64,000 nucleotides of DNA. Source: Clostridia bacterium. Lineage in GTDB: Bacteria; Bacillota; Clostridia; TANB77; CAG-508. A model generated the notes under the pieces. That model had not been told where the DNA came from, searched no databases, and saw only the letters and a list, made by a program, of their open reading frames with translations. The stretch spans positions 7,122-71,121 of the forward strand of contig CAAEUE010000003.1 of NCBI GenBank assembly GCA_900759015.1, written 5' to 3'. The position numbers and the translations under genes were made by a program. Positions 3,102 through 61,511 of this stretch are shown piece after piece (position 1 is the first letter of the stretch; each line of letters opens with the position of its first letter).

Positions 3102-3178
3102 GGGTCAGTAGCTCAGTTGGATAGAGCATTGGCCTTCTAAGCCAAGGGTCGGGGGTTCGAATCCCTCCTGGCTCACCA
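3102..3178 (+). tRNA. tRNA-Arg (anticodon TCT), CCA encoded
   Basis: Cloverleaf: acceptor stem GGGTCAG/CTGGCTC, D arm GCTCAGTTGGATAGAGC, anticodon loop CTTCTAA, T arm GGGGGTTCGAATCCCTC. Confidence 0.9.
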
Positions 3179-17151: not shown

Positions 17152-17421
17152 ATGAGAAATCTATCAATAGAAAAACGTGCAATAGAACTTGCACATTATA
17201 TTATAAATTCAAAAGATACAGTAAGAGGTGCAGCTTCTAAATTTGGAATAAGTAAAAGTACAGTGCACAAAGACTTAAGTGAAAGATTACTAAAGATAAA
17301 CCCGGTTTTAGCAAAGGAAGTAAGAAAAATTTTAGATAAAAATAAAGCAGAAAGACACATAAGAGGTGGAATGGCCACAAAACTTAAATACAGTCATATA
17401 AGAGAAGACAAAGTAGGGTAA
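17152..17421 (+). CDS. spoIIID: stage III sporulation transcriptional regulator SpoIIID
   Basis: 89 aa with the SpoIIID signature: GISKSTVHKDLSERL...NPVLAKEV...RGGMATKLKY. Confidence 0.85.
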   Translation: MRNLSIEKRAIELAHYIINSKDTVRGAASKFGISKSTVHKDLSERLLKINPVLAKEVRKILDKNKAERHIRGGMATKLKYSHIREDKVG

Positions 17422-17512
17422 TAAAACATTTTTTTACACATGAATACGATGTCAACAGAGATAATTAATTTATATTTGTTGAATCTGTAAAAATGGTGAT
17501 TCTATCTATATA

Positions 17513-17539
17513 AAAAGCGCTAATATATGGCGCTTTTTT
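17513..17539 (+). terminator. rho-independent terminator (AAAAAGCGC...GCGCTTTTTT)
   Basis: GC-rich 9-bp stem followed by T6. Confidence 0.6.
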
Positions 17540-17622
17540 CTTATAAATTTATTTATATTATACCAAATAAAATTAATATCACAGGCATGTTTACATTTAC
17601 ATAAAATATACTAGGTGATATT

Positions 17623-18423
17623 ATGAACAGAATAAAAAAAGGCAGTGCTGTTATAAAAAAGACAGATAAGAATGAAATTATATTTGTAGTGGAAAAAATT
17701 ACTTCTGAAAGAAAAAGAAAAATAGCAATTTTAAAAGGATTATATATTAGAATAATAGAGAGAATACCAGTAGATGAATTAGAATTGGTTGATAGGAAAT
17801 ATGTTAATAAATATATAGATGAAAGAAATAAGGTATTAGAAAAACTAATTTATAGTAGAAAAAATTCTTATAGTAATATGAAGCCTGGAAGAATAGTACA
17901 TTTAGATGGTGATAGAAGGTATATGGAAAAATCTTATAAATATTACAAAAAATTAGGGTTAAATGCTATAGTTAAATATGTTCCAGAAGAGAAGCAAGAA
18001 TATATTATAAAAGATTTAATTTCAAGATATAAGCCAGATATACTAGTTATAACAGGACATGATGGAATGATAAAAAAAGGAAGAAATTATAGTGATATAT
18101 ATAATTATATGAATTCTAGATTTTTTGTAAATACAGTAAGACGAGCGAGAGAACATGAAGATGGAAAAAATTTAGTTATATTTGCAGGTGCTTGCCAAAG
18201 TTATTTTGAAGCTTTAATTTCTGCAGGAGCAAATTTTGCATCATCACCTGCAAGAGTATTAATAGATTTTGCAGACCCATTAATTGTGGCAGAAAAAGTT
18301 GCTACAACAGATAGCGATTATTATGTTACAATGAATGATATTGTAGACGATTTAAGAGATGGAAAAGATGGAATTGGAGGAATTGGTGCTAGAGGAAAAA
18401 GGCACAAAGTAACCGTATCGTAA
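17623..18423 (+). CDS. yabG: sporulation-specific protease YabG
   Basis: Conserved core DILVITGHDG...FAGACQSYFE, and conserved synteny yabG-veg. Confidence 0.65.
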   Translation: MNRIKKGSAVIKKTDKNEIIFVVEKITSERKRKIAILKGLYIRIIERIPVDELELVDRKYVNKYIDERNKVLEKLIYSRKNSYSNMKPGRIVHLDGDRRYMEKSYKYYKKLGLNAIVKYVPEEKQEYIIKDLISRYKPDILVITGHDGMIKKGRNYSDIYNYMNSRFFVNTVRRAREHEDGKNLVIFAGACQSYFEALISAGANFASSPARVLIDFADPLIVAEKVATTDSDYYVTMNDIVDDLRDGKDGIGGIGARGKRHKVTVS

Positions 18424-18517
18424 CTAAAATGTAATACAAATGTAACATTAACAAGATGAAAGCTAAAATTTGCTTATATATGAGGCAAAACCGTTGCTAG
18501 ACATGAGGTACGCCATT

Positions 18518-18546
18518 TTGACACCGTTCGACAAAACTGATATAAT
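18518..18546 (+). promoter_or_regulatory. consensus sigma-A promoter for veg (TTGACA-17-TATAAT)
   Basis: TTGACA at 18518-18523, 17-nt spacer, TATAAT at 18541-18546. Confidence 0.6.
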
Positions 18547-18575
18547 TAATTCAGTTTTGAAAAGTAGGTGATAAA

Positions 18576-18875
18576 ATGATTTGTAGAGATGATATAACAA
18601 ATCTAAAAACAGATATTGATGGAAAAGTTGGTCAAAAGATTATTGTGAAAGGATCTTTAGGACGAAGCAGGACTTTTGAAAAGGAAGCCACAATAGAAAA
18701 AGCCTATCCAAATATATTTATAGTAAAATACGAAGAAAATGATAGAAATGTAACATATAGTTACACAGATATCTTAACTAGAACTGTTGAAGTTCAAGTT
18801 TTTGATGGGCAAGAATATAGTCCATTAATACCACCAGCAGAAGATAAAAAGCCAAGTAAAAAGATGGATTTATAA
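18576..18875 (+). CDS. veg: Veg (biofilm/sporulation-associated small protein)
   Basis: Veg family similarity (LKTDIDGKVGQKIIVKG..GR.RT.E...IEKAYPNIFIVKYE...SYSYTDILTRTVEVQVF). Confidence 0.85.
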   Translation: MICRDDITNLKTDIDGKVGQKIIVKGSLGRSRTFEKEATIEKAYPNIFIVKYEENDRNVTYSYTDILTRTVEVQVFDGQEYSPLIPPAEDKKPSKKMDL

Positions 18876-18900
18876 AATAGCTTGGTTTGATAATAAACTA

Positions 18901-18929
18901 AAATTCCTAGAAATAGGAATTTTTTTTTG
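18901..18929 (+). terminator. rho-independent terminator (AAATTCCTAG-AAA-TAGGAATTT + T9)
   Basis: Perfect stem followed by a long T-run. Confidence 0.6.
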
Positions 18930-18968
18930 CCTCTTTCATATAAATATAAAAAGAAAAGGAGGTAAAAA

Positions 18969-20513
18969 ATGAGTATAGAAGTTTTGCAAGACAATATATG
19001 TATTAATAGATTAGTAGAAAGGAAGAAAAAAGAAATTACATTAGAAAGTTCTATTATAGTTCCAGATGTTAAACCAGATATTGTAAAACCTATAGATTTA
19101 AGTGGAAATGTTTGTATATATAAAAAAGAAATAATAAATGGAAGAGTAAAAATTGATGGGACAATAGATTGTAACATCATATATTTAGTAGATAGTGTAG
19201 ATGAAAGTATAAGGGGGCTTAATAGTAATATAGATTTTTCCGAGTTTTTAGAGATTGATAGCAATATTTCTGAAGCTGATATTGACGCAAATATAGTTAT
19301 AAAAAATATGGAATGTGAAGTTCTAAATGGAAGAAAAGTTAATTTAAAAGCAACTATAGAGTTAAGTGCTAGACTATATTCAAATGATGGTATAAACGTA
19401 TTGAAGGATATAAATGGTTCAAGAGGAATACAAAAACTTAATAAAATAGTTCAATTAAATTCTATGGTTGGAAAAAATACTACTAAATCTATTGCAAAGG
19501 AGAATATAATAGTAAACCAAGAAGAACATATTGTAGAGATACTGAAGAAAGAGATAAGAATAATAAATAAAGATTTTAAAATTAGTTATAACAAAGTTGT
19601 AGCAAAATCAGAAATTAGTGCTAAAATTCTTTATCTAACGGACGATGGAAAGATAAATTATGTAGAAAAAGTTATTCCTATTATGGGATTTATAGATATG
19701 GAAAATGTTACAGAAGAGAATATATGTGATGTAAAATACTGTATGAAAAATATATTAGTAAAATTAAATAATACGGACGAAAATTCTATATATGTAGAAA
19801 TAGAAGTTGAGATTAGCTGTTATTCATACGAGACAAAAGATATAGAGCTAATACAAGATGTTTATACTCCTTTTTCTAATATTGAATACAATCGAAAAAC
19901 TATAAAAGCAATGGTAGGGCTACAAAATATAAATGATAAATACACAATAAATGAACAGATATTAAGTCCAGAGATTAGCAATAGTAGAATTTATAATGTT
20001 AGTACTACCACAAATATAAATAATATAAAAATAGTAGGAAGTAAAGCAATTTATGAAGGAGAAGCTTTCGTCAATATATTATATGAAAGTACAGAAGTAA
20101 CTCGTATTGATAAGAAAGAATTTAAATTTCCAATTAATTATGAAATAGATATTTTGGAAGGCATGAACGAAGAGAATTTAGATATCATGTTAGAATTAGA
20201 AAATTATAATGTATCATCACAAGGTGATAATATTCAGGTAAATATAGAACTAAATATTAGCACTAAAATGTTTAAAACCATAGAACTTAATATAATTGAT
20301 AATGTAGAAGAAAAAGAACTAGAAAATCAAGAAGAATATAGCATTATAGTATATTTTGTTAAAGATGGTGACACTTTGTGGAATATAGCTAAAAAATATA
20401 GAAGTACTGTAGAAAATATAAAACAAATTAATAATATTGAAGATGAAGACAAATTAGAGATAAATCAACAATTATTTATTCCAAGATATGTAGAAAAAGT
20501 TAAGGCTATGTAA
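18969..20513 (+). CDS. sporulation-associated protein with repeated DUF3794-like region and C-terminal LysM domain (SipL/SpoVID-like)
   Basis: C-terminal LysM (YSIIVYFVKDGDTLWNIAKKY...LFIP). 514 aa; sits in the sporulation neighbourhood. Confidence 0.45.
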   Translation: MSIEVLQDNICINRLVERKKKEITLESSIIVPDVKPDIVKPIDLSGNVCIYKKEIINGRVKIDGTIDCNIIYLVDSVDESIRGLNSNIDFSEFLEIDSNISEADIDANIVIKNMECEVLNGRKVNLKATIELSARLYSNDGINVLKDINGSRGIQKLNKIVQLNSMVGKNTTKSIAKENIIVNQEEHIVEILKKEIRIINKDFKISYNKVVAKSEISAKILYLTDDGKINYVEKVIPIMGFIDMENVTEENICDVKYCMKNILVKLNNTDENSIYVEIEVEISCYSYETKDIELIQDVYTPFSNIEYNRKTIKAMVGLQNINDKYTINEQILSPEISNSRIYNVSTTTNINNIKIVGSKAIYEGEAFVNILYESTEVTRIDKKEFKFPINYEIDILEGMNEENLDIMLELENYNVSSQGDNIQVNIELNISTKMFKTIELNIIDNVEEKELENQEEYSIIVYFVKDGDTLWNIAKKYRSTVENIKQINNIEDEDKLEINQQLFIPRYVEKVKAM

Positions 20514-20515
20514 GT

Positions 20516-21178
20516 ATGGAAAAGATATATTCTAGAAAAAAGATAAATCTTCCAAAAAAGTATAGAATGATAATATTAGTATTAGTAACTGCATTATTTA
20601 CAGTATGTTATTTAATAAATACGATTAGTCCCGTATTTAATCAATTATGCTTAAGCGAAGCAAAATCAACAGCAACGCAAATTGTACATGAAACTATAGA
20701 TGAGGTAATGGAAAAATACGGGTATAATGATTTAATTACAACAATAAAAGATAAAGATGGAAAAATAGTATCTATGCAAGCAAATATTGCAGTAATGAAT
20801 AAAATCGTTTCTCAAATTGCACTTAAGATACAAGAGAAAATAGATAATAAAGATAGTAGGGATATATCTATTAGATTAGGAACTTTTACAGGAATAACAT
20901 TGTTATCTGGTAGAGGTCCAAAAGTTCCAATTAGAATATCTAGCATAGGTAATTTGGATACAAAATTAAGTAGTGAATTTACATCAGCAGGAATTAATCA
21001 ATCTATACATAGAATATTTGCTAATATTAATTGTAAAATTGATGTCTTAACACCTTTCAACACTATAAGTAGCCAGATAGAAGAAAAGATTATATTAGCC
21101 GAAAATGTAATTATAGGAGAAATTCCAGAAAACTATTTAGATTTAGGAAATTTATTAAATGCAAATAAAAATAATTAG
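20516..21178 (+). CDS. yunB: sporulation protein YunB-like
   Basis: N-terminal TM plus conserved ...GTFTGITLLSGRGPKVPIRISSIG...GEIPENYLD core. Confidence 0.5.
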   Translation: MEKIYSRKKINLPKKYRMIILVLVTALFTVCYLINTISPVFNQLCLSEAKSTATQIVHETIDEVMEKYGYNDLITTIKDKDGKIVSMQANIAVMNKIVSQIALKIQEKIDNKDSRDISIRLGTFTGITLLSGRGPKVPIRISSIGNLDTKLSSEFTSAGINQSIHRIFANINCKIDVLTPFNTISSQIEEKIILAENVIIGEIPENYLDLGNLLNANKNN

Positions 21179-21318
21179 TTAACATATTAAATTTCGAAAA
21201 AATTCAAAAAAAACTCCCCAAAACCCGAAAAACGTGTTATAATGTGGTCGAAGTGTTATATTTATATAAAATACCTAGTAATATATTATTGAAATATAAT
21301 AAATAAAGGAGATAATAT

Positions 21319-22266
21319 ATGGATAAATTAAATGTAAAGAATTTAATTAATATTAAAGTAATTGGAATTGGCGGAGCCGGTAACAATGCTGTTAACAGAA
21401 TGATTGAAGATGGAATAGACGGGGTAGAATTTTATGAGTTTAACACAGAAGTAAAAGTTCTTGAGGAAGCAAAAACAAAGAATGTTATGCAAATCGGGAA
21501 AGAAATCACAAAAGGATTAGGTGCTGGCGGAGATGTATCCATAGGTGAAAGAGCAGCAATGGAAAATAAGGAAGAAATCAAGAATATATTACAAGGTACA
21601 GATTTATTGTTCTTAACTGCCGGAATGGGTGGAGGAACAGGAACTGGAGCAATTCCTGCAATAGCACAATTTGCAAAAGAAATGGGAATATTAACAGTAG
21701 GTATAGTTTCTAAACCATTTTCTTTTGAAGGAAAAGTACGAATGGCAAGAGCAGAAAGAGGAATAGATGAATTACGTGAAAATGTTAATTCATTAATTGT
21801 TGTTCTAAATGACAACTTATTAAAAGGGAATTCTAGAATCACATTACAAAATGCATTTAAAGAAGTAGATTTAGTTTTAGAAAAAGGTATAAAAGGAATA
21901 ACAGACCAAATTGCAACACCTGGATTAGTAAATATAGACTTTGCAGATATAAGAACAATTATAGGTTACAAAGGAAATGCATACATGGGTATAGGAAGAG
22001 GTAAAGGTGAACATAGAAACGAAATGGCTGTAAAAGAAGCCATTGGAAATCCTTTAACAGAAACTATGATACAAGGTGCAAAAGGTGTAATTGTAAATAT
22101 TGCAGGTAGTGCAGAAATGCCATTAGATGAAATTAATGCAATAATGACTGTAATTGGAGACAAAGTAGATAATCCAGAAGCAAATATTATCTTTGGAACA
22201 ATAATAGATGACTCTTTAGAAGATGAAATAATAATTACTGTTATAGCGACAGGAATAGATAAATAA
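21319..22266 (+). CDS. FtsZ-family tubulin-like GTPase, core domain only (315 aa; no C-terminal linker or conserved tail peptide)
   Basis: GIGGAGNNAVNRM, GGGTGTGAIPAIA and the NIDFADIRT T7 loop align along the whole core. The NTDAQAL motif is replaced by NTEVKVL. The ORF ends right after the core. Confidence 0.7.
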   Translation: MDKLNVKNLINIKVIGIGGAGNNAVNRMIEDGIDGVEFYEFNTEVKVLEEAKTKNVMQIGKEITKGLGAGGDVSIGERAAMENKEEIKNILQGTDLLFLTAGMGGGTGTGAIPAIAQFAKEMGILTVGIVSKPFSFEGKVRMARAERGIDELRENVNSLIVVLNDNLLKGNSRITLQNAFKEVDLVLEKGIKGITDQIATPGLVNIDFADIRTIIGYKGNAYMGIGRGKGEHRNEMAVKEAIGNPLTETMIQGAKGVIVNIAGSAEMPLDEINAIMTVIGDKVDNPEANIIFGTIIDDSLEDEIIITVIATGIDK

Positions 22267-22282
22267 AATTAAAACTAAAATA

Positions 22283-22310
22283 GGGATTTTGGGGACGTTC
22301 CTTAAATCCC
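22283..22310 (+). repeat. REP copy 2: GGGATTTTGGGGACGTTCCTTAAATCCC, 17 nt after the ftsZ-like stop
   Basis: Same palindromic family. Confidence 0.8.
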
Positions 22311-22460
22311 TATTTGATATATATAAGATTATAGATTTTTATAATATATTAATGACGAATATAACTAAAAAGCAAAACACCCAAATGTAAAAAAAATAAC
22401 ATTTAGAGGTGTTTTTTCTTGTGCAAATATGATAAGATTTAGCATATATGAGGTGAGCAG

Positions 22461-25400
22461 ATGAGTTTAAGATTAATATATGGAAAGTCTGGATGTGGAA
22501 AAAGCGAATATTGTTTTAACGAGATAGCAAAAAATATTAATAAAGAAAAAATATATATGATTGTGCCAAATCAAATGGCTTTAATGGCAGAAAAGCGATT
22601 AATGGAAAAAGCTGATAATTTGGCATTGGTAAATACAGAAGTAATTACATTTAGCAGAATGGCATTTAGAGTAAGAAATGAAATTGGTGGAGCTAAAAAG
22701 ACTGACTTAAGTAAAAGCGGTAAAGCAATGCTTATTTATGACATCTTAAGTAAGTGCAAAGACAATTTAAATTTTTTAGGAAAAAATGCAGAAAATGTTG
22801 ATATTATAGGAAATTCAATTACAGAATTTAAAAAGCATAGAATTAATATAGAAAACTTAAAAGAAGAAGCTAATACAACTGAAGATATGTATTTAAAGTT
22901 AAAACTAAATGATATGATTACTATGTATGAAGAATTCGAAAAAAGTATACAAAATAAATTTTTAGATGAAAATGATGTGTTAGATATTTTAAATACACAA
23001 ATTTTAGAAAGCAATCAGTTTAAAGATACAATAATTTATATTGATGAATTTGTTGGATTTACAACACAGGAATATGAGATTATAACAAAATTAATGCAAC
23101 TTGCAAAAGAAGTAAATGTTACGATATGTACAGATAATTTGATTCAACAGGAAGATGCAGATAAAGATATTTTTCACGCTAATAAAAATACAGGAATTAA
23201 ACTAATTAATTTAGCAAAAGAATATGGAATAGAAATAAAAGACGATATAAAACTTACAGAGTTACATAGATTTAAGAATGAAGAGTTAAAACATTTAGAA
23301 GAATATTTTTATGCAGTGCCATATAAAACATATAAGGAAGAGCCAAAAAACATAAAAATGTTTTTAGCTAATAACCAATATACAGAGATAGAACATGTAG
23401 CTGCTGAAATAGTAAAATTAGTTAGAAACGAAAATTATAGATATAAAGATATATCTGTTATAACTAAAAATTTAAACTTATATTCTAGCTTAATAAAAGT
23501 TATTTTTGCGGGCTATAATATTCCAGTTTTTATAGATGAGAAAAAAGAATTAAGCGAAAACATATTAGTAAAATTTTTAATAGCAGTTTTAGAAATTTGT
23601 AATAAAAATTGGTCATATGAAGCAGTGTTTAATTATTTAAAAACTGGTTTTGTAGATATAGATAAAGAAGAAATCTTTAAATTAGAAAACTACTGTATAA
23701 GATGGGGAATAAAAGGTAATAAGTGGTATAAAGAAGATTGGAATTATATAGGAAAAGATGAATATACAGAAGAGGAACTAGCAAGATTAAATGAACTTAG
23801 AAGAATGATTGTTATACCAATTAGAAAATTGCAAGAAAAAGCTAGAAAAGATAATAGTTTTATAAATTTAACTAAAATTTTATACGAATTTTTAGAAGAT
23901 ATGAAGATAGAAGAAGTTATAACTTCTAAAATAGAAAAACTAGAAGAGAAAGGTTTTATAGAGATTGCAAATGAATATGAAAGTAGTTTTAAGGTACTTA
24001 TAGAATTATTTGATGAAATTGTATTAGTTTTTGGAGAAGAAAAAACTACTTTTGATAAATATATGAGCATATTAAAAATAGGTTTAAAAAATACGGGACT
24101 TGGAAAAATCCCAGCAACACAGGATCAAGTTATTGTTGGAGATGTAAATAGATCTAGAAGTCACAAAGTTAGAGCAGTATTTATTATAGGAATAAACGAT
24201 GGAGAATTTCCAAGTATCTATAAAGATGAAGGATTTTTTAATGACAAGGATAGAGAATATTTAAAAGCACAGGGCTTTGAGTTAGCAAATGGAAGTTTAG
24301 AAAATTTATATGAGGAAAATTTTAATATATATAAAGCATTTACAATTGCAGAAGAAAAATTGTTCTTATCATATGCTTCATCAGACAATGAAGGAAGAAC
24401 ATTAAGACCTTCTATATTAATTACTAAATTAAAGAAAATCTATCCAAAGTTAAAAGAAACAAGTGACATAATTACTCAAGAAAAAGAAATTATTACTACG
24501 AATAATACCTTTGATAACTTAATAGAAAAATTAAATGCATATCAAGAAGGAGAAGAAATAGAAGATATTTGGTTTGATGTCTTTAAATATTACGAAAATA
24601 ATCCAATATGGAAAGGTAGATTACTAAAAAGTTTAGAGGGAGTAAAATATACAAATGTTCCAGAAAAGATTAAACCGGAATTTATTAAGAAATTATATGG
24701 GGAGACATTACACACAACAATTTCAAGGTTAGAAAGATATAGAAGTTGTCCGTTCTCATTCTATCTAGAATATGGACTAAAATTAAAAGAAAAGAAATCA
24801 TTAAAGTTACAACCAATAGATACAGGATCTTTTATGCATGAGATTATAGATGAATTCTTTGAGGAAGTTTCAACTAAAAGTATAAGTATAAAAGACATTG
24901 ATAAAGCAGAAATAGAAAAAATAGTAAAAAAAATAATAGAAGAAAAATTAAATTTAAAAGCTAATTATATTTTTAAAAGTATTCCAAAATTTATGGTACT
25001 TACAAATAGATTATGCAGATTAGTAACTTTATCTATAATATATATAGTTCAAGGACTACAAACTACTGATTTTGAAGTTGTAGGAAATGAGATAGAATTC
25101 AAAAATGGAAAAGAGTATAAGCCAATAGAAATTACTACAGAAGATGGAAGAAAAGTAGAAATAACAGGTAAAATAGATAGAATTGATTTAGCAAAAGATG
25201 AAACTGGAAAATATATAAGAATAATAGATTATAAGTCATCAGCAAAAGATATAAACTTAAATGAGGTATTAGCTGGTTTACAATTGCAATTAATTACATA
25301 TTTAGATGCAGTATGTGAAGAAAAGGATGTAATACCAGCAGGAGTGCTATATTTTGGCTTAACAGAGCCTAAGTTAGACAAAGTAAAGAATGCTAAAAAC

Positions 25401-25829
25401 ATCACAGATGAAGAGATAGAACAAAAAATAAGAGAACACTTTAGAATGAATGGGCTAGTATTAGCAGAAATGAATGTAATTAATATGATGGACAATAACT
25501 TAAAAGATGGTGAGAAGTCTACAACTATTCCAGTTAAACTAAAGAAAGACGGAAGTATGGATAAAACATCTAAAGTGGTATCAAGAAAGGAATTCGAAAT
25601 ACTACAAAAATATGTAAAGAAAACTTTAGGAGATATTTCTAAAGAGATTTTAGATGGAAATATAGACATAAAGCCATACTATAATGTTAAAAATAAAAGA
25701 AAACCATGTGAATATTGCGTATATGAATCAATATGTAATTTTAAAAAGGGCTTTTATGGCAATGACTATAATTATATAGACAGCTTAGAAAAAGAGTATA
25801 TACTAGAATGCATGAAACATGAACTTTAG
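22461..25829 (+). CDS. addB: ATP-dependent helicase/nuclease AddAB subunit B (RexB) with C-terminal Fe-S nuclease domain
   Basis: N-terminal GKSGCGKS Walker A motif. C-terminal IIDYKSS...LQLQLITYLDAV and the Cys cluster CPFSF...CEYCVYESICNF. Confidence 0.8.
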   Translation: MSLRLIYGKSGCGKSEYCFNEIAKNINKEKIYMIVPNQMALMAEKRLMEKADNLALVNTEVITFSRMAFRVRNEIGGAKKTDLSKSGKAMLIYDILSKCKDNLNFLGKNAENVDIIGNSITEFKKHRINIENLKEEANTTEDMYLKLKLNDMITMYEEFEKSIQNKFLDENDVLDILNTQILESNQFKDTIIYIDEFVGFTTQEYEIITKLMQLAKEVNVTICTDNLIQQEDADKDIFHANKNTGIKLINLAKEYGIEIKDDIKLTELHRFKNEELKHLEEYFYAVPYKTYKEEPKNIKMFLANNQYTEIEHVAAEIVKLVRNENYRYKDISVITKNLNLYSSLIKVIFAGYNIPVFIDEKKELSENILVKFLIAVLEICNKNWSYEAVFNYLKTGFVDIDKEEIFKLENYCIRWGIKGNKWYKEDWNYIGKDEYTEEELARLNELRRMIVIPIRKLQEKARKDNSFINLTKILYEFLEDMKIEEVITSKIEKLEEKGFIEIANEYESSFKVLIELFDEIVLVFGEEKTTFDKYMSILKIGLKNTGLGKIPATQDQVIVGDVNRSRSHKVRAVFIIGINDGEFPSIYKDEGFFNDKDREYLKAQGFELANGSLENLYEENFNIYKAFTIAEEKLFLSYASSDNEGRTLRPSILITKLKKIYPKLKETSDIITQEKEIITTNNTFDNLIEKLNAYQEGEEIEDIWFDVFKYYENNPIWKGRLLKSLEGVKYTNVPEKIKPEFIKKLYGETLHTTISRLERYRSCPFSFYLEYGLKLKEKKSLKLQPIDTGSFMHEIIDEFFEEVSTKSISIKDIDKAEIEKIVKKIIEEKLNLKANYIFKSIPKFMVLTNRLCRLVTLSIIYIVQGLQTTDFEVVGNEIEFKNGKEYKPIEITTEDGRKVEITGKIDRIDLAKDETGKYIRIIDYKSSAKDINLNEVLAGLQLQLITYLDAVCEEKDVIPAGVLYFGLTEPKLDKVKNAKNITDEEIEQKIREHFRMNGLVLAEMNVINMMDNNLKDGEKSTTIPVKLKKDGSMDKTSKVVSRKEFEILQKYVKKTLGDISKEILDGNIDIKPYYNVKNKRKPCEYCVYESICNFKKGFYGNDYNYIDSLEKEYILECMKHEL

Positions 25830-25904
25830 AGACAGAAATAAAAGTTAATAGGTATATATAAATAATGTTCAAAGCAGAATCTATAATATAGAAAGGAGAG
25901 CCTA

Positions 25905-26684
25905 ATGGATTTAAGTAATGAAAGCATAATACATGTCAAAAAGGGTAATGTTGAATATTTACAATTTAAAGAATTGCTAAAATATGCAGATAAATTGCAA
26001 CATGCATATTCTTTAAAACCATTGCAATTTAGTGATAAGAATGACCAGGCACCAGCAAATTATGAAAAAATATGTCGAGAATTGGAGATAGATTCTAACA
26101 AAATAATTAAGTCAGCACAAAAACATACAGATATTGTTAAAGATATAAAAGAATATACAGATGAAAAATTTGAATTTGTAGATGGATTTATAACAAATAA
26201 GAAGAATATACCATTAGTTACAAAATATGCAGATTGCACGCCAATAATCTTATATGATAAAATGAAAAATGTTATAGGAAATGTACATTCAGGCTGGAGA
26301 GGAACTTTGCAAAGAATAAGTGTTAAAGCAGTTAAATTGATGATAGAAAAATATAATTGTAATCCAGCAGATATAGTAGTGTGTATAGGCCCATGCATAA
26401 AACAGTGTCATTTTCAGGTAGAAGAGGATTTTATAGATAAATTTAAGCAAGAATTTGGAAATATAAACAAATATTATAAAATAGGAGAAGTCATAGAAGG
26501 AAAACAAAAATATTATTTTGACACAACAAATTTAATAATAGATTATTTAACCGAAATAGGAATAAAGAGAGAAAATATATTTGATAGCAATATTTGTAGT
26601 GTTTGCAATGCAGATAGTATGTCTTCATATAGAGCAGAAAAAGAAAAGGCAGATAGAAATATGAATATCGTAATGCTTAAATAG
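25905..26684 (+). CDS. pgeF: YfiH/PgeF (YlmD) family purine-nucleoside phosphorylase / peptidoglycan editing factor
   Basis: DUF152 motifs ADCTPIIL, HSGWRGT, CSVCNADSMSSYR. Confidence 0.7.
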   Translation: MDLSNESIIHVKKGNVEYLQFKELLKYADKLQHAYSLKPLQFSDKNDQAPANYEKICRELEIDSNKIIKSAQKHTDIVKDIKEYTDEKFEFVDGFITNKKNIPLVTKYADCTPIILYDKMKNVIGNVHSGWRGTLQRISVKAVKLMIEKYNCNPADIVVCIGPCIKQCHFQVEEDFIDKFKQEFGNINKYYKIGEVIEGKQKYYFDTTNLIIDYLTEIGIKRENIFDSNICSVCNADSMSSYRAEKEKADRNMNIVMLK

Positions 26685-37423: not shown

Positions 37424-37834
37424 TTATTGCTTTTTCATTTTAGGTTTTGCAATTAAAGAAGCTAAATAACCAAAGAATATTGCAGCAGCAATTCCACCTG
37501 CTGCATTTTTTATACCACCAGTAAAAGCACCAAGAAGCCCAGAAGTTTTAACGCCTTCTATTGCACCTTTTGCTAAATTGTATCCAAAACCAGTAAGAGG
37601 AACAGTTGCACCAGCGCCTGCAAAATCAACTAAATATTTATATAAACCAAGTCCACCTAAAATAACACCAGCAGTTACAAAAGTAACTAATATTCTAGCA
37701 GAAGTTAGTTTAGTTTTATCAATTAAAATTTGTCCTATTACACATATTAATCCACCAACGACAAAAGCTTTTAAAAGTGTAGACCATTCAAAAACAGCTG
37801 ACCAATCAATATTACTCATGAAATCTCCTCCCAA
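37424..37834 (-). CDS. spoVAEb: stage V sporulation protein AEb
   Basis: SpoVAC/SpoVAEb family signature VGGLICVIGQIL...DFAGAGATVPLTGFG. Confidence 0.75.
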   Translation of the reverse strand: MGGDFMSNIDWSAVFEWSTLLKAFVVGGLICVIGQILIDKTKLTSARILVTFVTAGVILGGLGLYKYLVDFAGAGATVPLTGFGYNLAKGAIEGVKTSGLLGAFTGGIKNAAGGIAAAIFFGYLASLIAKPKMKKQ

Positions 37835-37885
37835 GGATTTAGAAACGTTCTTTTTATAGAGATTTCAAAGAACGTTTCTTAATCT
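37835..37885. repeat. two degenerate REP halves in inverted orientation forming a 13-bp-stem hairpin (AGAAACGTTCTTT / AAAGAACGTTTCT)
   Basis: GGATTTAGAAACGTTC... and GATTTCAAAGAACGTTTCTTAATC; lies between spoVAEb and the divergent 660-aa gene. Confidence 0.5.
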
Positions 37886-37998
37886 CGAATTATTTTATAC
37901 TAATATTTTGTGCACGAATTGATAATTTTATACAGTTTTGGAATATTGAATGCTAGAAAAAGTTATGATAAAATTATTAAAAAATTGATTTTTAAAGG

Positions 37999-39981
37999 AT
38001 GCAAAAGATGATAGAAAGTGAAGTTTTTAAGAGGTATCAATTACCAATAGAAGAATTACGACCAAAAATAATTGATACAATAGTAGAAGTTTATGGAGAA
38101 AGACACAGGGAGCAAATAGAAGATAGATTAAATAATTTGTATATAAATGCATATGTTACAGCCGAGGATGTTCAAAATGATTATAATACAAAAAATAGCC
38201 ATTTTGTATCAATGCTATCAGTAAAATTTTTACGAAATATAGGAATAGAGGTTTCAAAAGAAACAGAAGATGAAGTGTATAAAAGAGGAACTTTTGCTTT
38301 GACAGAGGAACATAAAGATGTTTTAAAACAATATTTCGGAACTTCTAATTATACTGACTATGGAAAAATTTTTTCATTTGATGATGAATTAATAAATTCG
38401 GAAAACGAATATAAAAATAAAATGCATAAATCCAATAGATGTGAAATTTTAAAAGCTATGGGTTTAGAAATTTCACCAGAAAACTATGATGAAGTTATAC
38501 AAACTAAGCAAGGTCAAGAATGCTTAAATAGGGCAATAAATATATACAAAGTAGCTACAGACTGTAGAGGCGATTTTGATAAATTTCAAGAAGAAAATAA
38601 GGATTATATAGAATATTTAGAAAAAGTAAAAAAATATGAACAAGAATTAAAATTTAAATACATGAAGCAATATGCAACACAAATAGTGCCTTATTGTGAT
38701 AAAGAACTTGGAGCTAAAATAGAAGAGGCATTAGCTAAAAATTATACTTCAGATTATAGATTTACACAAGATGTAGATAAAGATGGAATATATATTGCAA
38801 GATATGGAGATCCGTTAATTTTTTCTTTTTCAGATGATGCAGAAGAAAAATTAGCTAAAGATAACTTTGAGTCTATGCGAGTAAAATCAGCTAGAATAAA
38901 ATATTTTAAAGCCAAAGGATTAGATTTAGGTAATAATTATGAGGATTATGAAAATAGCGAGGAAGCAAAAAAATTATTGCCTGACAAAGAACTGGTAGAA
39001 ACATTATATAAAATAAAAAAAGACGATGACAAAGAAATGGATATGGAGTTCTTTTTAAATACTGGAAATTACGAATCTTGTAAAAAGAATATATTATCAC
39101 AAGGTATAAAAATACAAGATAGTTTTAGTAAAGAATTTGTCGAAAATGGTGTAACATGTATAGTTCCGAATGTTAGACAAGATGACAATGGAAATTACCA
39201 ACTGTTTAATATAGTTCATCTTCCATTAGTTAAAATTTTAAGGGATTATAAAGATGTGCAGATAATACATGAATTATTACATACTGTAGAATCTAGCATG
39301 AAACAACTTTCGAAAGATGAAATATATTTTAAATTTGGTTTTGATGAAGCAGTAGAACCGATATGCCATAATGAAGATGAACTAATTGTAGACGATAGGA
39401 AAAGTGATCCAAATGAGCCAAGAAGAATATATGAATTATTATCTGAAAATTTACATCAAGAATTAGCAATTGAAGTTACCAGAAAACTACATGAAAAAGG
39501 AATATATTTGTATGGAGACCAAAAACTGGCTAGAGAAACTGGAGCGACTACGTACGAGCGTTATAATGTTATAACTATAAATTTTCAAAAAAAATATAGA
39601 GAAGAAATAATTGATGGAATGATGGAACCTACTAGAGATGGAATAATAGATGTTGTTGGAAAAGAAAATTTTGAAAATTTAAATTCAACTGTAAATGAAT
39701 ATGCTGGGTTACCATATTATAATATGATGGATGACGTTTTGGCTAAAAGAGACACAGACCTAACAAGGAAAAGGATAGAACTTGCTAATAGAGGTAAACA
39801 AATAGTAGTAGAAGACATGAAAGCATATGAACAAACTAGAGAAAAATATAGAATATCTGTCCAAAAAATAGGTAAAACAACAGTACATAGGTCGCTACAA
39901 AATAAAAGAAATGCAATGCAAGCACTTACATATGATGAGACTAAAGTTTTGGAAGGAGAACAATTAAGAAATGAACAATAA
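37999..39981 (+). CDS. unknown-function protein (660 aa) with HExxH motif (IIHELLHTVE)
   Basis: Long ORF, AAAGGATG start context, zincin-like HELLH. Confidence 0.5.
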   Translation: MQKMIESEVFKRYQLPIEELRPKIIDTIVEVYGERHREQIEDRLNNLYINAYVTAEDVQNDYNTKNSHFVSMLSVKFLRNIGIEVSKETEDEVYKRGTFALTEEHKDVLKQYFGTSNYTDYGKIFSFDDELINSENEYKNKMHKSNRCEILKAMGLEISPENYDEVIQTKQGQECLNRAINIYKVATDCRGDFDKFQEENKDYIEYLEKVKKYEQELKFKYMKQYATQIVPYCDKELGAKIEEALAKNYTSDYRFTQDVDKDGIYIARYGDPLIFSFSDDAEEKLAKDNFESMRVKSARIKYFKAKGLDLGNNYEDYENSEEAKKLLPDKELVETLYKIKKDDDKEMDMEFFLNTGNYESCKKNILSQGIKIQDSFSKEFVENGVTCIVPNVRQDDNGNYQLFNIVHLPLVKILRDYKDVQIIHELLHTVESSMKQLSKDEIYFKFGFDEAVEPICHNEDELIVDDRKSDPNEPRRIYELLSENLHQELAIEVTRKLHEKGIYLYGDQKLARETGATTYERYNVITINFQKKYREEIIDGMMEPTRDGIIDVVGKENFENLNSTVNEYAGLPYYNMMDDVLAKRDTDLTRKRIELANRGKQIVVEDMKAYEQTREKYRISVQKIGKTTVHRSLQNKRNAMQALTYDETKVLEGEQLRNEQ

Positions 39982-40405
39982 TTATTCTAAAGCATATGTA
40001 GAAGTATTAGAAATTTTAAAATATATTCCAAAAGAAGACTTAAAAAAAATTCCAAAAGATATAATATTTACTTTAGAAAAATGTGCAGATAAGGAGCATA
40101 TCTTTAGAATTAATAAAAGTATTCCTTTTGAAGAACAGAATTTAATGGAAGAAACAAAAGATATACTAGCAAACTTTTTTAGAGATTATTGGGCAACTGA
40201 TTTTCAAAGAGAGCAAATTTTGATAAAAGAAAAACAAGATGAGTATGAATTAGAAGAGAATAAGATAAAAATTAATTATGATGAAGTATTTAAGAATAAA
40301 AAGACAGAAGAAAAACCAAAAACAGAATTAACAGTACTACCAGAAAAAAAGTGGTATGAGAAGTTTTTGGATTATATAAAAAAAGTATTTAAATTAAAAA
40401 AATAG
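39971..40405 (+). CDS. unknown-function charged/coiled protein (144 aa), overlapping the upstream gene
   Basis: ATG overlaps the stop of the 660-aa gene by 11 nt. Confidence 0.4.
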   Translation: MNNNYSKAYVEVLEILKYIPKEDLKKIPKDIIFTLEKCADKEHIFRINKSIPFEEQNLMEETKDILANFFRDYWATDFQREQILIKEKQDEYELEENKIKINYDEVFKNKKTEEKPKTELTVLPEKKWYEKFLDYIKKVFKLKK

Positions 40406-40483
40406 AGATTTTGTTTAAACAAAATCTCTATTTTTAAGAATTAGCACCTAAGCTAATAGATTTATTACAAATACATATTAAGG

Positions 40484-40569
40484 AAAAAAGAATGTCTCTA
40501 AATCACGAGTGCAAAAAAAGAATGTTCCTAAATACAGAGGAAAAAAAGAAACGTTCCTCAATCCTTAAT
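40484..40569 (+). repeat. tandem triplet of ~28-bp units derived from the REP right half (AAAAAAGAA-t/c-GTTCCT-c/a-AAT-c/a-C...)
   Basis: Units at 40484-40512, 40513-40540 and 40541-40569, ending 3 nt before the spoVAD stop. Confidence 0.55.
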
Positions 40570-40571
40570 AA

Positions 40572-41576
40572 TTAAATTTCTATGCTAACTGCGTGTGCGA
40601 TTCCAGGAATGCTTTCACCTTGCTGAGTAGAAGTAGAATTCATTAAAGCTCCAGTTGCAATTAATAATATTTTTTTGTATTTTTTAGTTTGTAACATATT
40701 AAATAAATAACCAGAAAATACTGTACCACAACAAGCGCATCCACTTCCACCAGCATGTGTATCTTGGGTCGCCTTGTCAAAAATTAAAACTCCACAATCA
40801 TTGTAGTTAGATTTTATATTGAATCCTTTAGTCTGTGCAAGTTCAATTAATATTTCTTTACCAACATGTCCAAGGTCACCTGTTATAATTGCATCATAAT
40901 AACTTGGCTTTCTACCAGTATCACTAAAATGTGTAATTAAAGTATCTAAAGCAGCAGGAGCCATCGCAGCACCCATATTATTACCATCTTTAATTCCCAT
41001 ATCTATAATTCTACCAGGAGTAAAATGTGTTACAAAAGGTCCTGTTCCAGCAGAAGATAAAATTGCAGCACCAGAGCCAGTAACCGTCCATTGTGAAGAT
41101 TGAGGTCTCTGGTTTCCAAGTTCCAATGGAAATCTAAATTGTTTTTCTGCACTACAAAAATGACTAGAAGCAGCACAAATAACATTATCAGCAGCACCAC
41201 CATCAATAAATACAGAACCTAATCCTAAACCTTCAACAAAAGTAGAACAAGCACCAAAAATTCCTATAAATGGAATGTTTGAATCTCTAAGACCAAAACT
41301 AGAAGAAATACATTGGTTTAATAAATCACCAGCAAAACAATAATCTATGCTAGAAATTGGAAGATTAGATTTTTTTACCGCAGAATAAACAGTTTCTTTT
41401 AATATTTTACTTTCGGCTTTTTCCCAAGTCTTTTCTCCCCAGAATTCATCTTCTAAACATTTATCAAAATATTTAGCAAGTGGACCTTCTGCTTCTTTTG
41501 GACCAACAATACTTGCTGTATCTAAAATAGTAGGAGGCTTAGTAAATTTAATAGTTTGTTTCCCTAATTTTTCCAA
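40572..41576 (-). CDS. spoVAD: stage V sporulation protein AD
   Basis: 334 aa with thiolase/KAS-III-like fold. Confidence 0.75.
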   Translation of the reverse strand: MEKLGKQTIKFTKPPTILDTASIVGPKEAEGPLAKYFDKCLEDEFWGEKTWEKAESKILKETVYSAVKKSNLPISSIDYCFAGDLLNQCISSSFGLRDSNIPFIGIFGACSTFVEGLGLGSVFIDGGAADNVICAASSHFCSAEKQFRFPLELGNQRPQSSQWTVTGSGAAILSSAGTGPFVTHFTPGRIIDMGIKDGNNMGAAMAPAALDTLITHFSDTGRKPSYYDAIITGDLGHVGKEILIELAQTKGFNIKSNYNDCGVLIFDKATQDTHAGGSGCACCGTVFSGYLFNMLQTKKYKKILLIATGALMNSTSTQQGESIPGIAHAVSIEI

Positions 41577-41588
41577 AAAATCATCTCC

Positions 41589-42053
41589 TTATGCTAAAGT
41601 AATACCTTGTGTATTAAAAATAAGATATATGATACCAACAATAATAGAACTACAAATTCCAAAAACTAATACAGGCCCAGCAATAGTAAACATTTTGCTA
41701 CCAACACCCATAACATAACCTTCAGATTTAAATTCTATTGAAGGTGCAACAATAGAGTTAGCAAATCCGGTAATAGGAACTAAAGAACCTGCACCTGCGA
41801 ATTTGCCTATTTTATTAAACATATTTAAACCTGTTAAAAAGGCGCTAATAGCTATTAAGATAATAGAAACGATTGTACCAGAAGTTGCTTCGTCTAAACC
41901 ACGAGCTTTACATATAAGAGAGATAATTTGACCAAAAGTACAAATTAAACCTCCAACCCAAAATGCATTAAAACAATTTTTAAAAATCGGCGAATTAGGA
42001 GATTTTTTATCTACATATTCCTGATATTTTTTTTGAGTTTCTATAGGTTGCAT
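41589..42053 (-). CDS. spoVAC: stage V sporulation protein AC
   Basis: SpoVAC family (VGGLICTFGQI...GAGSLVPITGFAN). Confidence 0.75.
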   Translation of the reverse strand: MQPIETQKKYQEYVDKKSPNSPIFKNCFNAFWVGGLICTFGQIISLICKARGLDEATSGTIVSIILIAISAFLTGLNMFNKIGKFAGAGSLVPITGFANSIVAPSIEFKSEGYVMGVGSKMFTIAGPVLVFGICSSIIVGIIYLIFNTQGITLA

Positions 42054-53327: not shown

Positions 53328-54110
53328 ATGTCTAGAATTGCTAGAAAAAATATAGTATCTAAATTTGTACATATTGTTGCAAAAGGTATAAAGAGTGAAT
53401 TTATTTTTTATAAACAAGAATACAAAGAAAAGTATATTTTTTTGTTAAAAAAATGTATTAAAGAGTTAGAGGGGATAGATTTAATAGCATATTGTGTTAT
53501 GGATAATCATGTACATTTATTGATACATATCGAGGAAATAAATAAAGCTGAAACACTTATGCGAAAAATAAATACAGCATATGCTATATTTTATAACTTA
53601 CAAGAAGAGAGATCTGGATATGTTTTTTTCAATAGATATCATTCTGAAATAATAGAAAATGGTATTCATTTGCTTTCTTGTATAAAATATATTCATGAAA
53701 ATCCGGTGAAAGCAGGAATAGTAGAAAGAGGTCGTTTTTATCAGTATTCTTCATGTAAAGCTTTTATAGAGGAAGAGAGGAGTAATGATATTTTATGTTC
53801 GATTTTTGGAAATAATTTTAAATATGAATCTAATGAGATAGATGAAAGAATTGAATATCATTTTATTGATGAAGATGAGAGATTGGAAAAAATTGAAAGA
53901 CAAAGTGTAGAAATAATTATCAAAGAATTTTGTAATAAGTATAATACATCTATAACTGAAATTAGAAAATCTAATAGCTTAATAATAGAGTTCAAAAATT
54001 ATTTAAAGGTAAAATATAAAATAAGTAATAAAAATATTTGTGCTATGTTAGGAATAGGTAAAAATAGAATTTCGATAATTGAGAAAAAAGCTAAAAAAAT
54101 AAATAGATAA
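53328..54110 (+). CDS. REP-associated tyrosine transposase (RAYT, IS200-like Y1 HuH) with C-terminal DnaA-domain-IV-like HTH
   Basis: HuH motif DNHVHLLIH; Tyr motif YIHENPVKAG; C-terminal ICAMLGIGKNRISIIEKKAKK resembles the DnaA C-terminal HTH. Confidence 0.7.
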   Translation: MSRIARKNIVSKFVHIVAKGIKSEFIFYKQEYKEKYIFLLKKCIKELEGIDLIAYCVMDNHVHLLIHIEEINKAETLMRKINTAYAIFYNLQEERSGYVFFNRYHSEIIENGIHLLSCIKYIHENPVKAGIVERGRFYQYSSCKAFIEEERSNDILCSIFGNNFKYESNEIDERIEYHFIDEDERLEKIERQSVEIIIKEFCNKYNTSITEIRKSNSLIIEFKNYLKVKYKISNKNICAMLGIGKNRISIIEKKAKKINR

Positions 54111-58015: not shown

Positions 58016-59662
58016 ATGATTATTCGGAAAAAATTAAGACCAAAGGAATTACAAGAGTTTGATTTGTACTTTGGAAATTTAAAGAAACTTGTGGCGAAAG
58101 ATTTTAGAGAGGAGGAATTAAGGGAGTTAAAATTTTCAGCAATGAATTTGAATCGGTTTTATAGGGTAAATCACGATGAACCAACAAGAAAAGATACTGC
58201 TATGATGCTATGGGACAGAGTGCAGCAGATATTCTATAATGAGATGAATGAATTTCAAAGAGAACGAGTTGAGGAATATGAGTTGTTAACAAAAATAGCA
58301 TTAGCCATTTCCGGAAAGACAATTCATATAAAAGATGCATACATGAAATTGGCAAGAAGTCATACGATAGATATAATTCTTGAAGCTTTTAACGACAAAA
58401 CTTTCCTTGAAAACGTATTCATAGAAGTAAAAGCAGAAGCTTATCTGCCAATAATTCGTATGATTGACCTATATGGGGTTAATGATTTTGAGATAACAAA
58501 AGGAACAGATTTGTCAAGAATAATATTGCCAGATCAAATTTTAAGTAAAATAGAAAATATAGCTGGCAGATATGCGGAACAATTAGCAAACCGCATAACT
58601 TATTACATAATTATAATACTTGATATTCTTGACAAGGGCTGGGAGAGTGTACCCTTACTTTGGGTGGTAATGGAAAATAGAATTTTTAGAGAAATGCTGT
58701 TTGACAATATTATGATGAAATTGCCTAAAGAAAGAGTAGCTTTCTGGAAGGAATTAACAATAGATAGTAGGCATTGGCTATATGATTGCGGGTTATTTAG
58801 CGCTTCTAAAATACAAGACATGGAAAAATATGTAATAGACATAAAGACTGAATGTAATGGAAAGCATTTGCAAGATGAAAATTTATATTTTAATCTTGCT
58901 CAAGCAATTATTGTACATGATGAAAATTTACTTGCAATTTATTTCACTCTAACAAAAGAGGAGAAGAATATTGTAAGGAATGAAGCCGTTGTAATGGCAC
59001 GGAAAATAAAAGAAATTTTATTGGAAGTGCTAGAAGATTTTGATGTGAATTATGTGTATAAGAATCCAGTCGCAAATGAAGATATACTAAATGTCATCAG
59101 CTTTTTTTTCCAAATGTTTTATTTTACAAGACCAATTATGGCTAATGAGATGGAAAAGAGAGGTGTAGATAAAGCGGACTGGAAGTTCATAGAGAGCTTA
59201 TTATTATTAAAAATTAAGGAAGATAAAACACCATTTATTACAGATAAAAAGGAGCAAAAACTTAAAGAAGCTGTTGAGGAAACTTTGTTTGAGATAACAA
59301 TTAATGATATAAAGCAACTAGACTCAAAAGTTAAAACAGCCAAAAATAAAATGGAAGCTCTGAACGCATTACTAGGGTATGCATCTATACAAAAAGAAAA
59401 ACATAGTTCTCCGGAATTATTAAAAGAAGTAACAGAAACTTCGATGAAGACTTATAAGGAAGGCATCAGAAGAGAAGTAATGCAATTCTCTCTCAATAAT
59501 CTTTCAACAAAAAATGCTGATTTGGATAAATCTCTAAAGGTGCTAGAGGCCTTAGATAATGGTTTTATAAGCAAAGCAGAATTTTCCAAGGCACAGCAAA
59601 AAATGGGAGTAAAAGAGAAATATATAGAAATGTTTTTTTACTTTTATTTGCCATATTTCTAA
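58016..59662 (+). CDS. unknown-function cytoplasmic protein (548 aa); locally higher GC than its neighbours
   Basis: GGAGGA RBS; no recognisable motifs; sits where minC is expected, upstream of minD. Confidence 0.5.
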   Translation: MIIRKKLRPKELQEFDLYFGNLKKLVAKDFREEELRELKFSAMNLNRFYRVNHDEPTRKDTAMMLWDRVQQIFYNEMNEFQRERVEEYELLTKIALAISGKTIHIKDAYMKLARSHTIDIILEAFNDKTFLENVFIEVKAEAYLPIIRMIDLYGVNDFEITKGTDLSRIILPDQILSKIENIAGRYAEQLANRITYYIIIILDILDKGWESVPLLWVVMENRIFREMLFDNIMMKLPKERVAFWKELTIDSRHWLYDCGLFSASKIQDMEKYVIDIKTECNGKHLQDENLYFNLAQAIIVHDENLLAIYFTLTKEEKNIVRNEAVVMARKIKEILLEVLEDFDVNYVYKNPVANEDILNVISFFFQMFYFTRPIMANEMEKRGVDKADWKFIESLLLLKIKEDKTPFITDKKEQKLKEAVEETLFEITINDIKQLDSKVKTAKNKMEALNALLGYASIQKEKHSSPELLKEVTETSMKTYKEGIRREVMQFSLNNLSTKNADLDKSLKVLEALDNGFISKAEFSKAQQKMGVKEKYIEMFFYFYLPYF

Positions 59663-59671
59663 AATTTACAA

Positions 59672-59701
59672 AAAGGAGCAGGATAGTATCCTGCTCTTTT
59701 T
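59672..59701 (+). terminator. rho-independent terminator (GGAGCAGGA-TAGTA-TCCTGCTC + T-run)
   Basis: Perfect 9-bp GC-rich stem followed by TTTTT. Confidence 0.65.
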
Positions 59702-59762
59702 CCTTTCTAAAAATATAGAGTAAAAAAACGTATAAATCTTACGCAAATAAGCTTTCTAAGAT

Positions 59763-59791
59763 TGACTTTTTATACTTTTTCATATATTATA
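59763..59791 (+). promoter_or_regulatory. putative sigma-A promoter for minDE (TTGACT-16/17-TATTAT)
   Basis: TTGACT at 59763-59768 with an AT-rich -10 at about 59785-59791. Confidence 0.35.
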
Positions 59792-59851
59792 GTAATGTCA
59801 AATTTTATGTATAAATGAGATATGAAAGCACTAGCTTAAGGAGGAAGATTT

Positions 59852-60646: not shown

Positions 60647-60665
60647 ATAGCATTGGAGGTAAAAT

Positions 60666-61469: not shown

Positions 61470-61511
61470 GGGATGTATAACTAATAAAAATAAATACGTA
61501 AAGGATGAAAA

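Follow-up and report, generated by a model that had tools for sequence, protein, structure and literature searches.

A tail-less FtsZ paralogue, probably accessory to a canonical FtsZ, in uncultured gut Clostridia

We analysed a 64,000-nucleotide stretch of DNA from an uncultured member of the Clostridia (hereafter the window), which contains a gene for a 315-residue FtsZ consisting of the GTPase core alone. We favour, with moderate confidence, the view that this short ftsZ encodes an accessory paralogue specific to uncultured small-genome gut Clostridia (CAG-354/TANB77-like) and kept alongside a housekeeping ftsA-ftsZ locus. An initial annotation, made from the sequence of the window, had proposed a paralogue rather than the housekeeping copy. 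This is supported by a canonical FtsZ of 368 residues encoded in an ftsA locus of the same lineage, by the presence of both genes in one assembly of a sister species (BRZ_PP), and by the existence of a conserved clade of tail-less proteins.

A complete FtsZ core without a tail

The protein matches the Pfam Tubulin/FtsZ GTPase domain (PF00091; residues 11-169, E = 1e-45) and FtsZ_C (PF12327; residues 219-314, E = 1.5e-29). It scores 361.7 bits against the NCBIfam ftsZ equivalog TIGR00065 (cut-off 295.2), with model positions 11-325 of 353 aligned, and its residues 9-314 match solved FtsZ cores (E = 1e-93) in an end-to-end alignment with the crystallised cores. An AlphaFold model, computed from an input alignment of 39 sequences, has a predicted local distance difference test score of 89 and Foldseek template modelling scores of 0.87-0.93 against the FtsZ of S. 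aureus, B. subtilis and M. tuberculosis. The motifs GGAGNNAVNRM, GGGTGTGAIPAIA and NIDFADIRT are readily recognised, with NTEVKVL standing where NTDxQAL is usual. The G-box GIGGAGNN and the tubulin signature GMGGGTGTGA occupy columns that are invariant in the 39-sequence alignment, the T7 synergy loop VNIDFADI is intact (N205, D207 and D210 being invariant as well), and the equivalent of R143 is retained. The T2 loop, by contrast with the canonical N-T-D-x-Q (D46 and Q48 in S. aureus FtsZ, SaFtsZ), reads NTEVK.

The protein ends in ...VIATGIDK, just after the last core strand, which is where the crystallised core and the crystallisation constructs end. The linker and the C-terminal peptide (D-I/L-P-x-F-L-R/K, which binds FtsA and SepF) are absent. 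A sequencing frameshift concealing a normal C-terminus, a possibility raised in the initial annotation, was ruled out because stops occur in all three frames downstream (22267-22460), because hairpins follow the stop codon, and because the stop position and the length of 315 residues are conserved across 16 species-level genomes. The exact protein is moreover present in 38 blocks of assemblies. The open reading frame (ORF) is real, and its product is a complete, confidently FtsZ-folded core that lacks the tail, as had been described at the outset. The altered T2 motif, noted at the same time, can be read directly from the sequence, and the same two positions are changed in the 106 clade members compared, all of which have Glu in place of Asp and none of which has Gln.

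A canonical ftsA-ftsZ locus in the same lineage

The nearest relatives of the short protein come from metagenome-assembled genomes (MAGs) of uncultured Clostridia or Clostridium sp., including "Clostridium sp. CAG:354_28_25" at 99% identity. We infer that the NCBI name CAG:354 corresponds to the GTDB genus CAG-354, of order TANB77 and family CAG-508 (10.1101/2021.05.11.441322), an order reported to be uncultured and to have reduced genomes (PMC11680825). The GC content of the window is 27%, and the contigs bearing the short-ftsZ locus measure 1.3-1.85 Mb.

Several proteins retrieved in the first homologue search (5.8 billion proteins) proved to be misassembled chimeras, in which the short FtsZ is joined to a canonical FtsZ ending in NDLDIPSFLRKKQK. 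The two parts are joined at the sole long runs of identity that the genes have in common, which measure 24-26 nt and lie at GMGGGTGTG and AKEMGILT. A query composed of the canonical parts of these chimeras recovered, at 99% identity, an FtsZ of 368 residues whose C-terminal peptide is NDLDIPSFLRKKQK (a DIPSFLRK tail). Its cluster has 192 members, and the commonest sequence, P0253, lies on 388 contigs of up to 1.72 Mb. At all the places shown, which include contigs of 1.6-1.7 Mb, the P0253 locus reads murA-ftsQ(POTRA)-DUF881-DUF881-sbp-ftsA-ftsZ-spoIIGA-sigE-sigG-PRC, followed by about 5.5 kb free of genes; this layout is standard in Firmicutes. Two further canonical sequences, P0157 and P0148, are likewise found within ftsA-ftsZ loci, on contigs closely related to these. 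The canonical and the short gene share an extreme codon bias (GC at third codon positions 0.11 and 0.15, respectively). Within BRZ_PP, NODE_3038 (coverage about 5, MAG bin61) bears the short gene, and NODE_1595 (coverage 6.2, deposited at NCBI as well) bears the canonical P0157. Synonymous divergence from the reference lineage is congruent, at 0.69 between the short genes and 0.66 between the canonical ones. We consider it likely that the two genes co-occur in one genome.

Users of public metagenome assemblies should be aware of FtsZ entries that carry internal duplications or are paralogue chimeras (P0002, P0008, P0009, P0010, P0012, P0015, P0016, P0021 and P0032); the chimeras arise because the two ftsZ genes share the identical stretches of 24-26 nt.

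The tail-less proteins form a conserved clade with its own signature

Matches at about 60% identity in the first search were nearly all 311-338 residues long and fell into more than 100 sequence clusters. The short acidic C-terminal extensions that some relatives carry contain no FtsA-binding motif. We compared 106 tail-less sequences with 136 canonical FtsZs and with the FtsZ of E. coli and B. subtilis, these last two being used solely to set the numbering and to add rows on the canonical side. The resulting signature is given in Table 1; at positions 45, 47, 164, 246 and 249 the residues D, Q, P, S and L are kept in all 136 canonical proteins.

Table 1. Residues that distinguish the tail-less clade from canonical FtsZ (E. 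coli numbering)
Position	Canonical	Tail-less clade	Window
45	D	E (106/106)	E
47	Q	G (98), K (5), Q 0/106	K
74	P	E (100), V (5)	V
164	P	L (105/106)	L
194	Q	T (96), K (8)	K
246	S	N (106/106)	N
249	L	T (106/106)	T

The initial annotation had called for a phylogeny of the two paralogues. In a neighbour-joining tree of 103 core sequences, 20 of them tail-less and including the divergent representatives of 50%-identity clusters P0287 and P0289, the tail-less group is separate and monophyletic in 100 of 100 bootstraps. On average it lies 0.80 from diverse FtsZ, compared with 0.58 for the canonical FtsZ of the same lineage, and it is nearer to that canonical FtsZ (0.66) than to the diverse set. These distances fit an accelerated paralogue that arose within the Clostridia. 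In a library of 1.84 billion representatives, few 50%-identity clusters were tail-less, and all the other top matches were full-length FtsZs at 45-53% identity. The ratio of nonsynonymous to synonymous substitution rates (dN/dS) of the short gene, measured against five sister species, is 0.04-0.06, indicating strong purifying selection, and its product keeps 92-93% identity between species in which SipL and YunB have fallen to 60-80%. Rather than a truncation artefact, the tail-less proteins constitute a conserved clade.

One of the divergent tail-less members of this clade, P0289 (403 residues), has the T2 loop VDTNAIS. Its gene call carries about 95 extra N-terminal residues that by eye resemble the N-terminus of undecaprenyl-diphosphate synthase (UppS), and these are probably a gene-calling run-on rather than a true fusion.

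A putative modulator of the Z-ring

The 315-residue protein should bind GTP and assemble head to tail. FtsA, SepF and other partners dock on the tail of FtsZ, and because this tail is absent here the protein is not expected to tether itself by the usual route: it would be unable to bind FtsA, SepF, EzrA or MinC in the ordinary way, and would reach the membrane or the Z-ring only by co-assembly with canonical FtsZ or through some adaptor.

The substituted T2 loop has been studied elsewhere. In filament structures of SaFtsZ, the subunit that carries the nucleotide touches the Mg2+ site through its D46 and Q48, and these residues lock K+ into the next subunit's T7 loop; the Q48A mutant assembles, with a GTPase activity lowered about 6-fold and with filaments that are stabilised and straighter, and D46A abolishes assembly (PMC8936486). 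E. coli FtsZ Q47K does not complement or support division unless a suppressor is present (PMC5405962). With the T2-loop Gln lost (Lys in the window) and the Asp replaced by Glu, slow hydrolysis of the protein's own GTP would be expected. The combination of an intact T7 loop with E46 and no Q48 suggests a model in which the short subunit would join FtsZ filaments and trigger GTP hydrolysis by the subunit beneath it, and would itself hydrolyse GTP slowly and bring no tether. Its incorporation might then stabilise filaments and dilute their membrane tethers, tuning the dynamics of the Z-ring instead of building it. One might speculate that the Lys at 47/48 in this genus mimics the bound cation.

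Several points weigh against such an accessory role. The search for a canonical ftsA-ftsZ elsewhere in the genome, suggested by the initial annotation, succeeded for the lineage and for one sister assembly, but the two genes were not found on one contig: among the contigs listed for the exact short protein and a frequent variant of it, for the canonical P0253 and for Veg, encoded nearby, seven of more than 1 Mb carried the short gene and three others P0253, and no single contig carried both. P0148, tried as a means of joining the two genes, led to an unrelated MAG. Co-polymerisation with canonical FtsZ is presumed by analogy. The clade-specific changes on the nucleotide face (T2, T3) and those close to E250, a lateral residue, could instead promote filaments of the short protein alone. 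Finally, D45E is a conservative change and the loss of Gln may be offset in part by K47, which leaves a slow GTPase as a prediction only.

Substitutions beside E250, a residue on the side of the FtsZ protofilament, and those in T2 and T3 leave room for a model in which the short protein forms an independent cytoskeletal filament, building homopolymers with a dedicated adaptor in a role outside division. We regard this as unlikely, if conceivable. It would agree with the location of the clade-specific substitutions on both sides of the longitudinal and lateral surfaces and with the long branch of the clade. A conserved 227-residue protein, with an N-terminus that by eye looks like a hydrophobic membrane anchor, is moreover encoded directly or closely downstream of the gene in two lineages at about 60% identity. 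A precedent is the truncated FtsZm of M. gryphiswaldense, described as having a non-division role (cited in 10.1101/412759). Yet no conserved partner gene accompanies ftsZ across the clade, the 227-residue protein gave only a 34-residue low-complexity match when compared with the window, with no homologue there, and the precedents still interact with canonical FtsZ.

The neighbouring protein is a possible dedicated partner of the short FtsZ. It occurs as 227 or 228 residues at 7987-8670 of L064 and 7999-8685 of L023, in each case followed by a radical-SAM enzyme; the copies are 50% identical, and in L064 only 18 nt separate it from ftsZ.

It is also imaginable, though we rate it as improbable, that the whole clade is an FtsZ made slow by nature. 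Lys or Gly in place of the Gln that locks K+, and the lack of tail contacts, would then provide a second, long-lived scaffold, which TANB77-type bacteria would use for a specialised event such as polar or sporulation septation, or for a non-division cytoskeleton with a dedicated membrane adaptor such as the 227-residue protein. If true, this would amount to a division of labour between two FtsZs so far undescribed in Firmicutes.

Comparison with other two-FtsZ systems

In being a core-only protein without linker or C-terminal peptide, the short FtsZ resembles A. tumefaciens FtsZ1, the truncated paralogues of other Hyphomicrobiales and S. meliloti FtsZ2, and it shares with the A. tumefaciens FtsZ1 group a gene located outside the dcw (division/cell-wall) cluster and, at the level of its lineage, a canonical FtsZ as well. 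A. tumefaciens FtsZ1 is dispensable, localises only in the presence of canonical FtsZ and co-polymerises with it (10.1101/412759). Its overexpression blocks division, and truncated FtsZ paralogues are said to have arisen at least five times (10.1101/2025.09.29.679267). The Clostridia protein differs from this group as an independent duplication in another phylum that forms its own clade, set apart by D45E, the loss of Q47, P74 and P164, S246N and L249T. FtsZm of M. gryphiswaldense is likewise a truncated FtsZ. It is described as dispensable for division, able to polymerise alone in vitro and probably interacting with the generic FtsZ (cited in 10.1101/412759). Unlike FtsZm, which belongs to the magnetosome island and biomineralisation, the short ftsZ has no organelle context.

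The chloroplast and cyanobacterial-derived FtsZ1 and FtsZ2 are also a two-FtsZ system with one member lacking the C-terminal peptide; the peptide-less member modulates ring dynamics and the other forms the backbone (PMC3494859). Plant FtsZ1 raises turnover, whereas the T2-loop changes in the Clostridia predict slower hydrolysis; the lineages are unrelated. The positions altered in SaFtsZ Q48A and D46A and in E. coli Q47K are the same ones that are changed here, naturally and clade-wide. Unlike the engineered mutants, however, the clade has Glu and not Ala at 46, Lys or Gly and not Ala at 48, and compensating changes elsewhere.

In the open literature that we searched, no paper described a tail-less or additional FtsZ from the Clostridia or from other Firmicutes; truncated FtsZ paralogues have been studied chiefly in Alphaproteobacteria and plastids. 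The Clostridia clade resembles the truncated FtsZ of Alphaproteobacteria but evolved independently, with an unusual active-site signature. It is abundant in human and animal gut metagenomes, and the gene is retained under strong purifying selection in genomes of about 1.3-1.85 Mb, in an uncultured order, TANB77, that is a subject of clinical interest. The clade thus offers a natural experiment at two catalytic-interface residues (D46 and Q48 of SaFtsZ) whose mutation alters filament stability. There is also a practical consequence: because annotation pipelines label the short gene "cell division protein FtsZ", analyses of division genes or of single-copy markers may pick the wrong ftsZ.

Transcription and gene neighbourhood

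The short ftsZ looks like a sigma-A-type transcription unit of its own with its own terminators, because its spacer holds a conserved extended -10 element, conserved sporulation motifs are lacking, and terminator-like hairpins follow the gene (Table 2). The spacer that separates it from yunB is 140 nt long and contains TGTTATAAT, which is invariant save for one base in one of 17 aligned sequences (the window and 16 sister genomes). A scan with the sigma-70 consensus did not list TGTTATAAT, listing other sites instead, and gave fewer matches than shuffled sequence. The conserved leader matched no Rfam family and folded no better than shuffles (z -0.12). Candidate Spo0A boxes and sigma-E/K/F/G motifs, sought by eye upstream, were not conserved between species, and there was no sign of co-transcription of the upstream genes from spoIIID to yunB with the short ftsZ.

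Table 2. Features of the window
Feature	Position	Strand	Basis or remark
Tail-less ftsZ paralogue, 315 residues, ORF from ATG to TAA	21319..22266	+	domain matches, conserved stop, dN/dS
Ribosome-binding site AAGGAG, 7 nt 5' of ATG	21306..21311	+	sequence; conserved in upstream alignment
Extended -10 element TGTTATAAT; -35 position a poor match (TCCCCA)	21235..21243	+	upstream alignment; putative function
Second extended -10-like element TGTTATATT, with which a highly conserved ~65-nt leader begins	21254..21262	+	upstream alignment
Strong hairpin 12 nt past the stop, -18.7 kcal/mol, z -3.8, weak U-tract	22278..22315	+	fold computation
Second hairpin, then UUUUUUCUU, terminator-like, before the addB start at 22461	22374..22421	+	fold computation
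spoIIID, yabG, veg, sipL-like (SipL/LysM), yunB; upstream neighbours	17152..21178	+	neighbours only; synteny limited to the genus
spoIIID, intact	17152-17421
addB, then YlmD-family pgeF; downstream neighbours	22461-26684		addB: TIGR02773, 1064 bits
ylmD/pgeF	25905-26684
spoVAC-spoVAD-spoVAE(B)	37424-42053	-
IS200/Y1-type transposase ORF	53328-54110
minD, 267-residue protein, RodA/FtsW-family gene	58016-62618		minD: TIGR01968
Single tRNA gene	3102-3175

The neighbours are those named in the initial annotation, which had also remarked that no division partner flanks the gene; none of ftsA, sepF and divIVA was found among the window ORFs scanned. The short ftsZ lies between yunB and addB, and not at the end of the dcw cluster beside ftsA. 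The arrangement yabG-veg-sipL-yunB-ftsZ(short)-addB-pgeF does not vary within the genus (10 of 10 places listed, together with the sister genomes compared). Relatives at about 60% identity have other surroundings: P0055 has ileS/rluD on one side and a two-component system on the other, P0040 follows a miaB-like gene and precedes the 227-residue protein, a radical-SAM enzyme, thyA and folA, and the copy in L023 lies between acetyltransferase-type genes and an insertion sequence. Synteny with sporulation genes is thus limited to the genus and does not extend across the family.

This bears on the suggestion, also made in the initial annotation, of an FtsZ dedicated to sporulation, that is, one made during that process to build or reposition the polar septum or to act in engulfment. 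The genus CAG-354 always has the short ftsZ after the series spoIIID..yabG-veg-sipL-yunB, and the carriers look like spore-formers, with spoVA genes in the window and a spore photoproduct lyase gene near P0040. The loss of this synteny at about 60% identity nevertheless argues against such a role, as do the gene's own promoter region and terminators. The sole invariant promoter element is a sigma-A-type extended -10, unaccompanied by any conserved sigma-E/K/F/G-like motif or Spo0A box, and the adjacent veg, addB and pgeF are not specific to sporulation. Beyond adjacency at the genus level, nothing connects the short ftsZ to sporulation, and we consider a dedicated sporulation function doubtful.

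It is very improbable that the gene is no more than a housekeeping ftsZ of short length, with no second copy in its genome. Its score above the TIGR00065 equivalog cut-off, the name "cell division protein FtsZ" in the source databases and the lack of a second ftsZ in the 64-kb window would be in keeping with such a role. Against this stand the canonical ftsA-ftsZ locus in the same lineage and the same assemblies, the loss of the Q47 equivalent, where such a change is non-complementing in E. coli (PMC5405962), and the lack of a tail for membrane tethering. A truncation artefact or decaying pseudogene, for which nothing speaks except the shortness of the protein, is refuted by the length and stop kept in 16 species and more than 100 clusters, by the dN/dS, and by the recurrence of the exact protein in the 38 blocks.

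Other observations on the locus and the window

The short ftsZ has different neighbours in differing lineages, among them a YlmH-like S4 protein and mreB (L065 473-4333), ileS and rluD (L067 2488-6654) and, in the window, ylmD/pgeF. In B. subtilis these genes lie distal to ftsZ in the dcw/ylm region, and their presence in these contexts is a hint that the origin of the paralogue was a duplication in its vicinity. The usual pairing of addB with addA is absent here, addB being followed by pgeF/YlmD.

The spoIIID gene is intact in the window and is split in some strains (L002 4025-5768, L003 3784-5527, L061 3268-5011), in which only codons 36-89 are left. The remnant abuts the 3' end of a gene for a 535-residue large serine recombinase (Resolvase, Recombinase and Zn_ribbon_recom domains), with several small ORFs alongside, an arrangement suggestive of a skin-like intervening element or a prophage that entered the gene at about codon 35. 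A second strain-variable insert, between spoIIID and yabG, encodes an FHA-domain ABC transporter (779 residues) and a divergent alpha/beta hydrolase (478 residues). It is found in most long contigs (for instance L001 2310-6140 and L053 5074-8902) and is absent from the window (17421-17623) and from L004, L006 and L058.

Elsewhere in the window, the spoVAC-spoVAD-spoVAE(B) set bears out the genotype of a spore-former. The 548-residue ORF upstream of minD matched neither MinC nor any other domain, and minC is not at its expected place. The 267-residue protein encoded between minD and the RodA/FtsW-family gene has a MinE domain in residues 23-93 only, the matched MinE profiles being 68-87 positions long. 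The window also holds an IS200/Y1-type transposase ORF and one tRNA gene.

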